NCBI RefSeq assembly: GCF_051903065.1
Contig: NZ_CP178438.1
From: Escherichia coli
GTDB lineage: Bacteria > Pseudomonadota > Gammaproteobacteria > Enterobacterales > Enterobacteriaceae
Length of the DNA stretch: 64,000 nt
Reading direction: 5' to 3' (one strand)
Shown one piece after another: positions 49,719 through 50,602 of this stretch. Below the pieces are notes generated by a model that was given only the letters and a program-made list of their open reading frames with translations, was not told the origin of the DNA and ran no database searches. How positions within the stretch are numbered: position 1 is the stretch's first letter; every line of letters begins with the position of its first letter. Made by a program: the position numbers and the translations under genes.

Positions 49719-50061
49719 TATTGTGGTGATGTACGGGGAGATTTATCTGTTTAAAAGTCCGTAGCTGTTAATATCAAGAGATAATCGTGAAATAAACGGA
49801 AAATCAAGCTCGACATGTAATGGTAGTATCCATCATGTTGCATTTGTGTTCGATCGTAATGTCAGTTCACTTGGCTGCAATATATTTTGCGTAATATCAT
49901 CAATGCTCTGTCGATATTCCAATGTGTGACAATCGAAAGATATGCATTTTATTTGCTTCTTTGTCAAAACTTTATTGTCGTAGAAACAATACCCATCAAT
50001 TAAAATCTCTCAAAGTAAAAGAACCAGCAACATGTCCAGCAAAATAAGGAAAAGTATCAGT

Positions 50062-50586
50062 ATGAGAGCGATTTTCAAATGTTATTCTCTAATGATTTTA
50101 TTTGCAGTATCAGGCTGTTCAATGGCAAAAAATAGCGGTGATTACACTGCTGTGGATATTAATGGGATAAATCATACGGATAAGGATATAAATTATATAC
50201 ACATCAATGGTTACGGCGGACCAAATATTGGTCCATTCGGAGACGGTGGAGGATATTGTTGCGTTATGCTGCCAGATAAGTGGCATTCTGGATTAAAAGC
50301 CCAGGTTGAATGGGAAATTACCCCAAATACAGTACCTCCGCCACCACTCTATAAGGATTGGGATAAATATCAGGCCTGGGAGAAAAAACTAAAAGAAAGT
50401 TACATTCAACATACCGCAATTGTTGATATCCCGGAATACGATGCTGAGCTTTGTGGCCTGACCGTTCATTTTCTAACGTGTAATCAGATTAAAGTGACAA
50501 CCGTCTGCCAGAAGTATGGCACACCGAATTATCCCATCAAAGAACCCCGCGAGATGAAGGAACCAGCAACATGTCCAGCGAAATAA
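50062..50586 (+). CDS. Lipoprotein, candidate immunity (Tli-like) protein
   Basis: Start MRAIFKCYSLMILFAVSGC (lipobox) with RBS AAGGAA; ORF track starts 30 nt earlier at 50032 inside a repeat. Confidence 0.6.
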   Translation: MRAIFKCYSLMILFAVSGCSMAKNSGDYTAVDINGINHTDKDINYIHINGYGGPNIGPFGDGGGYCCVMLPDKWHSGLKAQVEWEITPNTVPPPPLYKDWDKYQAWEKKLKESYIQHTAIVDIPEYDAELCGLTVHFLTCNQIKVTTVCQKYGTPNYPIKEPREMKEPATCPAK

Positions 50587-50602
50587 GTGGTCTGGCTTTT
50601 CC

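Follow-up and report, generated by a model that had tools for sequence, protein, structure and literature searches.

The window analysed here is a 64,000-nucleotide stretch of an Escherichia coli genome (assembly GCF_051903065.1, contig NZ_CP178438.1). It contains the distal end of a T6SS cluster, located beside yafV-ivy-fadE, in which the gene order is VgrG (44424-46823), M35 peptidase, a hypothetical protein, a 3' vgrG fragment, tla1, a spacer, tli1a, tle1 and an ISAs1 pseudogene. The vgrG fragment (48597-48941, + strand, from the annotation of identical loci) belongs to a second vgrG, which was once the head of the tla1-tli1a-tle1 module. Only its last ~115 codons remain, directly upstream of tla1, and the tle1 module has in this way lost its own vgrG. 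Strains N96 and FEX669 keep a full vgrG at this position, and the module appears to have been orphaned through insertion or replacement within the gene.

The annotated tla1 gene (48948-49718, + strand) encodes a DUF4123 adaptor/chaperone of Tle1, which matches the NCBIfam Tla1 model at 220 bits against a cut-off of 200. It is followed by an AT-rich spacer of 299 nt (49719-50017, 33.8% GC) with no annotated feature. At the end of the spacer is an orphan copy of the cassette boundary discussed below, termed J1 (50018-50048, + strand), with an ATG at 50032. The tli1a gene comes next (50062-50586, + strand, PGAP annotation). It encodes an outer-membrane-type DUF3304 lipoprotein of 174 aa and is present as a single 'A-type' cassette, with a variable core at 50315-50424 (+ strand) and its true 3' end, J2, at 50557-50587 (+ strand; stop at 50584-50586).

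The tli1a product matches both NCBIfam Tli1a_fam NF053804 (211 bits, cut-off 110) and Pfam DUF3304 PF11745 (E=3.4e-28), and a lipoprotein signal peptide with the lipobox VSGC can be read straight from its translation (MRAIFKCYSLMILFAVSGC). The gene adjoins both the Tle1 effector gene and the DUF4123 adaptor gene tla1 and is, by family and context, a predicted Tle1 immunity protein gene. The effector gene itself, tle1 (50571-52663, + strand), encodes a phospholipase and is frameshifted, with a long ORF only from a GTG at 50603. Its product has the Tle1 catalytic and C-terminal domains (PF09994, PF22137) and a GxSxG motif in the form GFSRG. An IS903B-like element lies at 42537-43504, between hcp and tssB, and the ISAs1 pseudogene at approximately 52921-53684, downstream of tle1.

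The repeated boundary element and what it encodes

An earlier note on this DNA had reported a 28-mer, GAACCAGCAACATGTCCAGC(A/G)AAATAAG, at 50021-50048 and again at 50560-50587, and both positions are exact. Leftward extension by 3 nt gives a repeat of 31 nt (50018-50048 and 50557-50587) which is identical at 29/31 positions, the two mismatches being A/G at 50020/50559 and A/G at 50041/50580. The name J is used here for this boundary element of 28-31 nt, J1 being the upstream and J2 the downstream copy, spaced 539 nt apart. Allowing up to 3 mismatches, no further copy of the 28-mer is present in the 64-kb window. Chance likeness of the two copies, for which only their short length speaks, can be dismissed: 0/100 dinucleotide-preserving shuffles matched the 28-mer, and the same 28-mer is found at homologous positions in every related locus. 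Searches at J for dyad symmetry, an inverted repeat, or an attC-like or otherwise stable fold found none.

J contains the last nine codons of tli1a (KEPATCPAK and the stop), an AAGGAA Shine-Dalgarno (SD) sequence and the ATG of the following gene. Read in a different frame it gives ATG-TCC-AGC..., the annotated start of the next gene, so that the two genes overlap by 16 nt. The SD, AAGGAG or AAGGAA, sits 8-9 nt before the embedded ATG. In J2, the SD AAGGAA is at 50557-50562, 9 nt before the ancestral tle1 ATG at 50571, with a 16-nt overlap with the end of tli1a. This is the arrangement of overlapping genes, in which the downstream start lies inside the upstream ORF and its SD inside the upstream coding sequence.

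The earlier note had also placed the ribosome binding site and start codon of tle1 in the second copy. ATG 50571 is indeed the annotated start of intact tle1 in relatives, the gene being annotated from the ATG of J in N96, ChlosBP-23-1, FDAARGOS_944, FEX669, A30 and GPT24-02. The claim holds for the ancestral start; it does not for the window as it stands, in which this ATG is out of frame with the body of tle1 following a 1-nt loss in a run of C residues. A further observation, that a short reading frame and the lipoprotein share their C-terminus, is accurate: a 41-codon ORF (49922-50047) and the lipoprotein ORF (50032/50062-50586) both end in KEPATCPAK and a stop. The former is probably not a gene.

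J is present at each spacer/tli1a, tli1a/tli1a and tli1a/tle1 boundary in all of the E. coli loci examined. By its sequence, it is a conserved and apparently dual-use junction, which provides the C-terminus of Tli1 together with the SD and ATG of the next gene, and not only a scar. The conserved design of the tail suggests translational coupling of neighbouring genes. No RNA structure masking the tle1 start was found in a single-sequence fold (z=+1.0), and a nine-genus consensus fold at the junction gave only 3 invariant pairs, with no covariation and no consensus helix. Thus, with no occluding structure found, the argument for coupling is one of geometry and sequence conservation, and conservation of the tail could in part come from protein function, as it includes a conserved Cys.

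The tli1 tail also contains an internal near-repeat, seen in the window at 50536-50576 and in all tli1 tails, in which AAAGAACC, 6-7 nt and an ATG are followed by AAGGA(A/G)CC, 6 nt and a second ATG (IKEPxxM followed by KEPAxC). This may be an ancient duplication of the SD-ATG module.

Conservation of the tail in other genera

A single scan across species gave ten loci, from Rahnella, Erwinia, Superficieibacter, Pantoea, Enterobacter, Pseudomonas and Silvania, which share the synteny tla1-(tli1)n-tle1, with n=1-4. The tail comparison covers the nine loci with an E. coli-like Tli1 and leaves out the distant Silvania locus. In these nine, every tli1 ends in IKEPxxMKEPAxCPxK before the stop, coded ATG-NAG-GAR-CCN...NNA-TGT-CC...stop, and the ATG embedded in the tail is the start of tle1. 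The Pseudomonas veronii and P. helleri loci have the same tail with the embedded tle1 start; identity between the E. coli proteins and the Pseudomonas homologs found is only ~45%. The next lipoprotein in Rahnella and Enterobacter cancerogenus has the ATG of J as its only plausible start, and its signal peptide begins there directly.

The codons of the tail are more uniform than the amino acids that they specify. The Lys codon of the first KEP is AAA in 34/34 junctions, and the codon at the equivalent position of the second KEP is always NAG (34/34; AAG in 29, CAG in 4 and GAG in 1). The codon before the Cys is NNA, again in 34/34 junctions, across five different amino acids. Invariance of NAG means that AGGAG or AGGAA is retained even where the amino acid differs, whilst invariance of NNA before TGT preserves the embedded ATG. 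At the level of sequence comparison, the codon usage of the tail shows a constraint on the nucleotides themselves, from Pseudomonas to E. coli.

Arrays in some of these genera include pieces of the effector gene. In P. helleri (L014, 5466-7200) and Erwinia aphidicola (L009/L010, an array lying on two scaffolds), the spacers between tandem tli1 genes hold copies of the first ~20 codons of tle1 (for example MSEVKNSAIAKVWAPPLFPV), which indicates that the duplication unit there took in the 5' end of tle1. In the locus of Silvania hatchlandensis (L017, 1986-10461), tle1 or an N-terminal fragment of it, of decreasing length, comes after each of five DUF3304 genes, which makes an array of immunity genes and 5' stubs of the effector gene.

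Cassette number and the origin of the repeat in E. coli

The module is found in 69 of 5,426 complete E. coli genomes, and a probe for the conserved 3' end of the cassette hits 181 places in 68 genomes. Among the 69, no cassette is present in 1 genome, one in 10, two in 3 and three in 55. Several tandem immunity genes beside one effector (2-3 cassettes) are thus found in 58/69 loci, while the window itself has one; of the one-cassette genomes, 5 have the cassette type of the window and 5 a lone D cassette. As the earlier note had anticipated, the number of lipoprotein cassettes varies between related genomes, from 0 to 3, with the same repeat at every cassette boundary.

Base-level comparisons locate these differences. 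Strain 2018-05-2CC, the only zero-cassette genome, has the left flank of the window, one J and the right flank, base for base, minus exactly 539 bp. A second, independent case is provided by EC2641 (D cassette) and FDAARGOS_944 (B and D cassettes), which differ by a single 539-bp gap running exactly from J to J. In FEX669, cassette 2 is a B/D hybrid, B-type at all informative sites to alignment column 401 and D-type from column 423. The tle1 beside it is 100% identical to that of ChlosBP-23-1, a strain with separate B and D cassettes, and the hybrid is, on this comparison, a third event, attributable to a single crossover inside the genes. The window cassette is likewise a mosaic, consisting of a B-like part (50018-50310, with a 214-nt exact tract), a psiA-like part (50315-50424) and a part common to all types (50425-50587). 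At its core (50315-50424), identity ranges over 26-73% with the B, C and D types and over 63-100% with the psiA cassette of ChlosBP-23-1.

Copy number in this immunity array differs between close strains (0/1/2/3 copies), with breakpoints that fall in shared homology, as in the two 539-bp J-to-J differences and the one hybrid. The core of the earlier reading, in which the repeat is a footprint of recombination by which lipoprotein cassettes are gained or lost in an immunity-gene array, is supported by the range of 0-3 copies and by the two clean repeat-to-repeat differences of 539 bp. The zero-cassette state is regarded as derived, because its J still encodes the C-terminus of tli1 and because all other genomes and genera keep at least one tli1.

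It is considered probable, with good confidence, that J is the boundary element of a Tli1a (DUF3304) immunity cassette in a module of the form tla1-(tli1a)n-tle1, that cassettes are gained, lost or fused at J, and that J1 is likely a relic of a lost cassette. Every tli1a ends with J, and J gives an SD and an ATG to whichever gene comes next, be it tli1a or tle1. As each cassette supplies the translation start of its downstream neighbour, arrays come to be punctuated by near-identical direct repeats of 28-31 nt and also share longer stretches of conserved sequence at the 5' and 3' ends of the genes. Cassettes could then be added, removed or fused by replication slippage or unequal homologous recombination between such repeats. 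The window shows a one-cassette state, with the cassette between J1 and J2; a lost upstream cassette would have left J1, and the present first cassette would once have been internal. Loss rather than gain is the presumed direction of events, and the enzymology is presumably RecA-dependent or one of slippage.

Two other accounts of the copy-number differences have been weighed. Tandem repeats are easily misassembled, and even the C6/C7 difference adjacent to the repeat might be a homopolymer error, so that the differences might be collapsed or expanded repeats in the assemblies and the repeat in the window of no evolutionary consequence. This is the least credible of the accounts that deserve weighing, as all of the genomes are complete assemblies, cassettes within one array are only 70-91% identical and hence easily resolved, the same architectures recur in many independent assemblies (55 three-cassette, 5 window type, 5 single D) and the hybrid cassette has one clean crossover. 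Alternatively, the ancestor might have been cassette-less (spacer-J-tle1), with cassettes inserted into J by integration of a site-specific or mobile-element type and the repeats arising as a target duplication. The empty site does keep one J, and direct repeats do bound the cassette. In eight genera, however, J encodes the conserved C-terminus of tli1, making it part of the gene and not a target site. At least one tli1 is present in 68/69 E. coli loci and in all other genera, no integrase or recombinase is found nearby (only IS pseudogenes), J lacks dyad symmetry or an attC-like fold, and an active toxin without immunity would be a non-viable ancestor. Insertion into J is accordingly judged highly improbable, if marginally less so than an assembly artefact. 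An integron-like, mobile-cassette or target-site-duplication origin of the repeat was rejected for the same reasons: the neighbourhood is without a recombinase, J is without a dyad, and J is coding sequence conserved across genera.

The spacer is single-copy, occurring once per genome in all 69 module-bearing genomes and absent elsewhere in E. coli genomes, and spacer and J1 are together 94-100% conserved across the 69. Homology of the segment 49900-50047 to lipoprotein 3' ends, which the earlier note had proposed, exists over about 50009/50018-50047 and not in the rest of the spacer, which has no significant similarity; the match of J1 to the tli1 3' end spans about 31-40 nt. Seven cassette bodies gave no significant local DNA alignment with 49719-50020 (p 0.13-0.96), and when the spacer was compared with the ten cross-genus loci by blastn and tblastx only the J part matched tli1 3' ends. 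On these results the idea of a decayed cassette body upstream of J1 was rejected. An anchored comparison of the 60 nt to the left of J1 and of J2 gave a weak signal (P=0.0125), driven by a common CCCATCAA at a 2-nt offset. A scan of the spacer for promoters and terminators gave 5 sites against 3.7 expected, which is background, and no terminator, and a search against Rfam gave no match at E<=1.

J1 is most likely the surviving 3' end of a lost cassette that lay further upstream, homology beyond ~31-40 nt being weakly supported. Since the similarity of the spacer beyond J1 is non-significant or weak, the case for a relic is mainly one of comparative logic: simple tandem duplication is unable to put a J upstream of the first unit, which favours a relic. 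First cassettes of the arrays in other genera have unrelated start regions of their own, with no J upstream. Superficieibacter electus offers what is, by analogy, a clear parallel to J1 as a relic. Here an orphan tli1 3' remnant is found right after tla1 (L011, ~1290-1360; DYPVKISLNMKESASCQMN and a stop, compared with DYPVKEPRNMKEPEICPVK and a stop), followed by ~210 nt of AT-rich DNA and then by an intact tli1 with its own start region.

It has also been considered that J1 is not a relic but the functional translation-initiation region of the first cassette, kept by selection. Translation of the lipoprotein would then begin at ATG 50032, giving MSSKIRKSISMRAIFK..., and the repeat would be explained by all cassettes and tle1 sharing one start module. 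Conservation of spacer and J1 in all 69 genomes fits this account, as does the position of ATG 50032, whose reading frame is that of the lipoprotein in every cassette type. The upstream copies of ChlosBP-23-1 and FEX669 retain AAGGAA and the ATG, with GTG as the internal start, and in both Rahnella and E. cancerogenus the signal peptide of the next lipoprotein begins directly at the ATG of J. Against it, the SD position of J1 in the window reads AAAGAA, having lost a G that is kept in 34/34 true junctions, and the internal ATG 50062, which PGAP picks as the start, has an AAGGA 11 nt upstream. The first cassettes of other genera use unrelated start regions, the C-terminal codons and stop of tli1 in J1 are superfluous for starting translation, and the account covers the persistence of J1 and not its origin. 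A start region in place of a relic is considered rather unlikely, while J1 being kept as a start region is compatible with an origin as a relic. The same evidence bears on the residues MSSKIRKSIS, which the earlier note had called a spurious extension of the lipoprotein. Such an extension need not be spurious in general, the equivalent ATG being the sole plausible start of downstream lipoproteins in Rahnella and E. cancerogenus; where the window's first cassette is concerned, however, the internal ATG 50062 is the better candidate.

Relation to known systems and decay of the effector module

The phenomenon belongs to a known class, that of T6SS immunity arrays which differ between strains and have been shaped by homologous recombination (PMC5361080), and occurs in the known Tla1-Tli1a-Tle1 family (PMC13133936); it is not a new kind of system. 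Gain and loss of cassettes at a shared boundary is an ordinary, well-understood route of toxin-immunity array evolution. What appears to be undescribed in the literature searched is the stop/start connector repeated at each cassette boundary, with its conservation across genera, and the base-level evidence of cassette loss exactly at J in E. coli. These provide a base-resolution account of how a T6SS immunity array grows and shrinks in E. coli, with the same connector retained across Gammaproteobacteria. Immunity to given Tle1 variants would depend on the cassettes carried, and so the array bears on compatibility between strains.

The same protein families and gene order are found in the vgrG4a island of Pseudomonas aeruginosa, which consists of VgrG4a-Tla1 (PA3293, DUF4123)-Tli1b (PA3292)-Tli1a (PA3291, a DUF3304 lipoprotein)-Tle1 (PA3290) (PMC13133936). 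In that island, a tandem pair of DUF3304 immunity genes, of which one is decayed, separates the adaptor from the effector; a boundary repeat, a stop/start overlap and copy-number polymorphism are absent from its description (PMC13133936). Unlike the island, the module in the window has no vgrG of its own and its tle1 is frameshifted. Enteroaggregative strain EAEC 042 has, in Sci-1, a comparable E. coli T6SS pair, a Tle1-family phospholipase with an outer-membrane lipoprotein as immunity protein, but its Tli1 is a DUF2931 protein (bioRxiv 10.1101/2024.03.05.583533), whereas the window pair is of the DUF3304/DUF4123 lineage. The EAEC Tli1 was ruled out as the closest relative on account of this difference in family.

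Orphan immunity-gene arrays are known from the T6SS clusters of Vibrio cholerae (Kirchberger et al. 2017, PMC5361080). They too are strain-variable sets of immunity genes beside a T6SS effector; homologous recombination has shaped them, and they still contain vestiges of displaced genes (PMC5361080). In V. cholerae the arrays lie downstream of the effector, their immunity genes are of unrelated types that came in along with new effector-immunity modules, and a case against duplication is made by the authors (PMC5361080). The E. coli array, in contrast, is upstream of the effector. Its members are DUF3304 paralogues, conserved at their ends and variable in the core, and its changes would come about via unequal exchange at the shared boundary or in gene-end homology.

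Orphan rhs-CT/rhsI and cdiA-CT/cdiI arrays reportedly undergo recombination between repeated segments, as is said to have been described by Koskiniemi et al. in 2014. The likeness lies in short conserved sequences, common there to full-length and orphan modules, which act as recombination handles for reshuffling toxin and immunity content. The rhs and cdiA arrays differ in that the shared homology is in the toxin gene and recombination activates orphan toxins, with immunity copy number unchanged.

Translationally coupled overlapping genes, with a stop/start overlap and an SD inside the upstream ORF, are a general feature of bacterial operons. The tli1a junction resembles them in having the downstream ATG 16 nt before the upstream stop and the SD inside coding sequence, coupling here being suggested by geometry and sequence conservation. 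It departs from ordinary coupled pairs in that the overlap module recurs at each cassette, and by being repeated in this way it doubles as recombination homology. As a more speculative extension, which is tentative and somewhat doubtful, the tli1 tail might be a portable dual-coded connector with two roles. It might act as a safety interlock, in that neither the toxin gene nor the next immunity gene would be translated unless the preceding immunity gene is, and as a recombinase-free cassette junction, at which gain, loss or swapping of cassettes automatically preserves downstream expression; these roles would be why the design has persisted from Pseudomonas to E. coli. A minor addition to this proposal is that the run of seven C residues in tle1 might be a recurrent on/off switch.

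This run is the site of the frameshift in the effector gene. Intact tle1 alleles have C7 after codon 14, reading MSS(E/K)ISGLAFPCYAPP... and encoding 697 aa. The window has C6 at 50612-50617 (+ strand), which shifts the frame of tle1 after codon 15, as do 23CRST031 and 2018-05-2CC, and C7 is found in A30, GPT24-02 and all other lineages. ATG 50571 is out of frame with tle1 because of C6 in place of C7. From this ATG the window frame stops after 23 codons, and an ORF of 686 codons begins only at GTG 50603, which has no obvious SD; from its conserved start, then, the window tle1 is not an intact ORF. In A30 and GPT24-02, which likewise carry the A cassette alone, the run is C7 and tle1 is intact (697 aa). 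The occurrence of C6 on two different adjacent SNP haplotypes implies recurrent slippage or miscalling of the homopolymer.

Annotation of the locus is affected accordingly. The start chosen for tli1a is inconsistent, the frameshifted tle1 is rescued via a GTG start, and the 41-codon ORF is probably spurious. The GTG start set by PGAP at 50603 masks the frameshift.

Orphaned effector modules can here be seen decaying. Loss of vgrG would be consistent with relaxed selection and with 2018-05-2CC tolerating its loss of immunity. Frameshifts are annotated in the IS903B transposase and the main vgrG of 23CRST031, a near-identical strain, which hints at decay of the whole T6SS locus in the lineage of the window. 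Past the C-run, tle1 has a SNP cluster at 50618-50631, with 4 changes in 14 nt relative to other lineages, and a second, dense patch at 50933-51051 relative to the otherwise near-identical A30. These clusters suggest gene-conversion mosaicism in the effector too.
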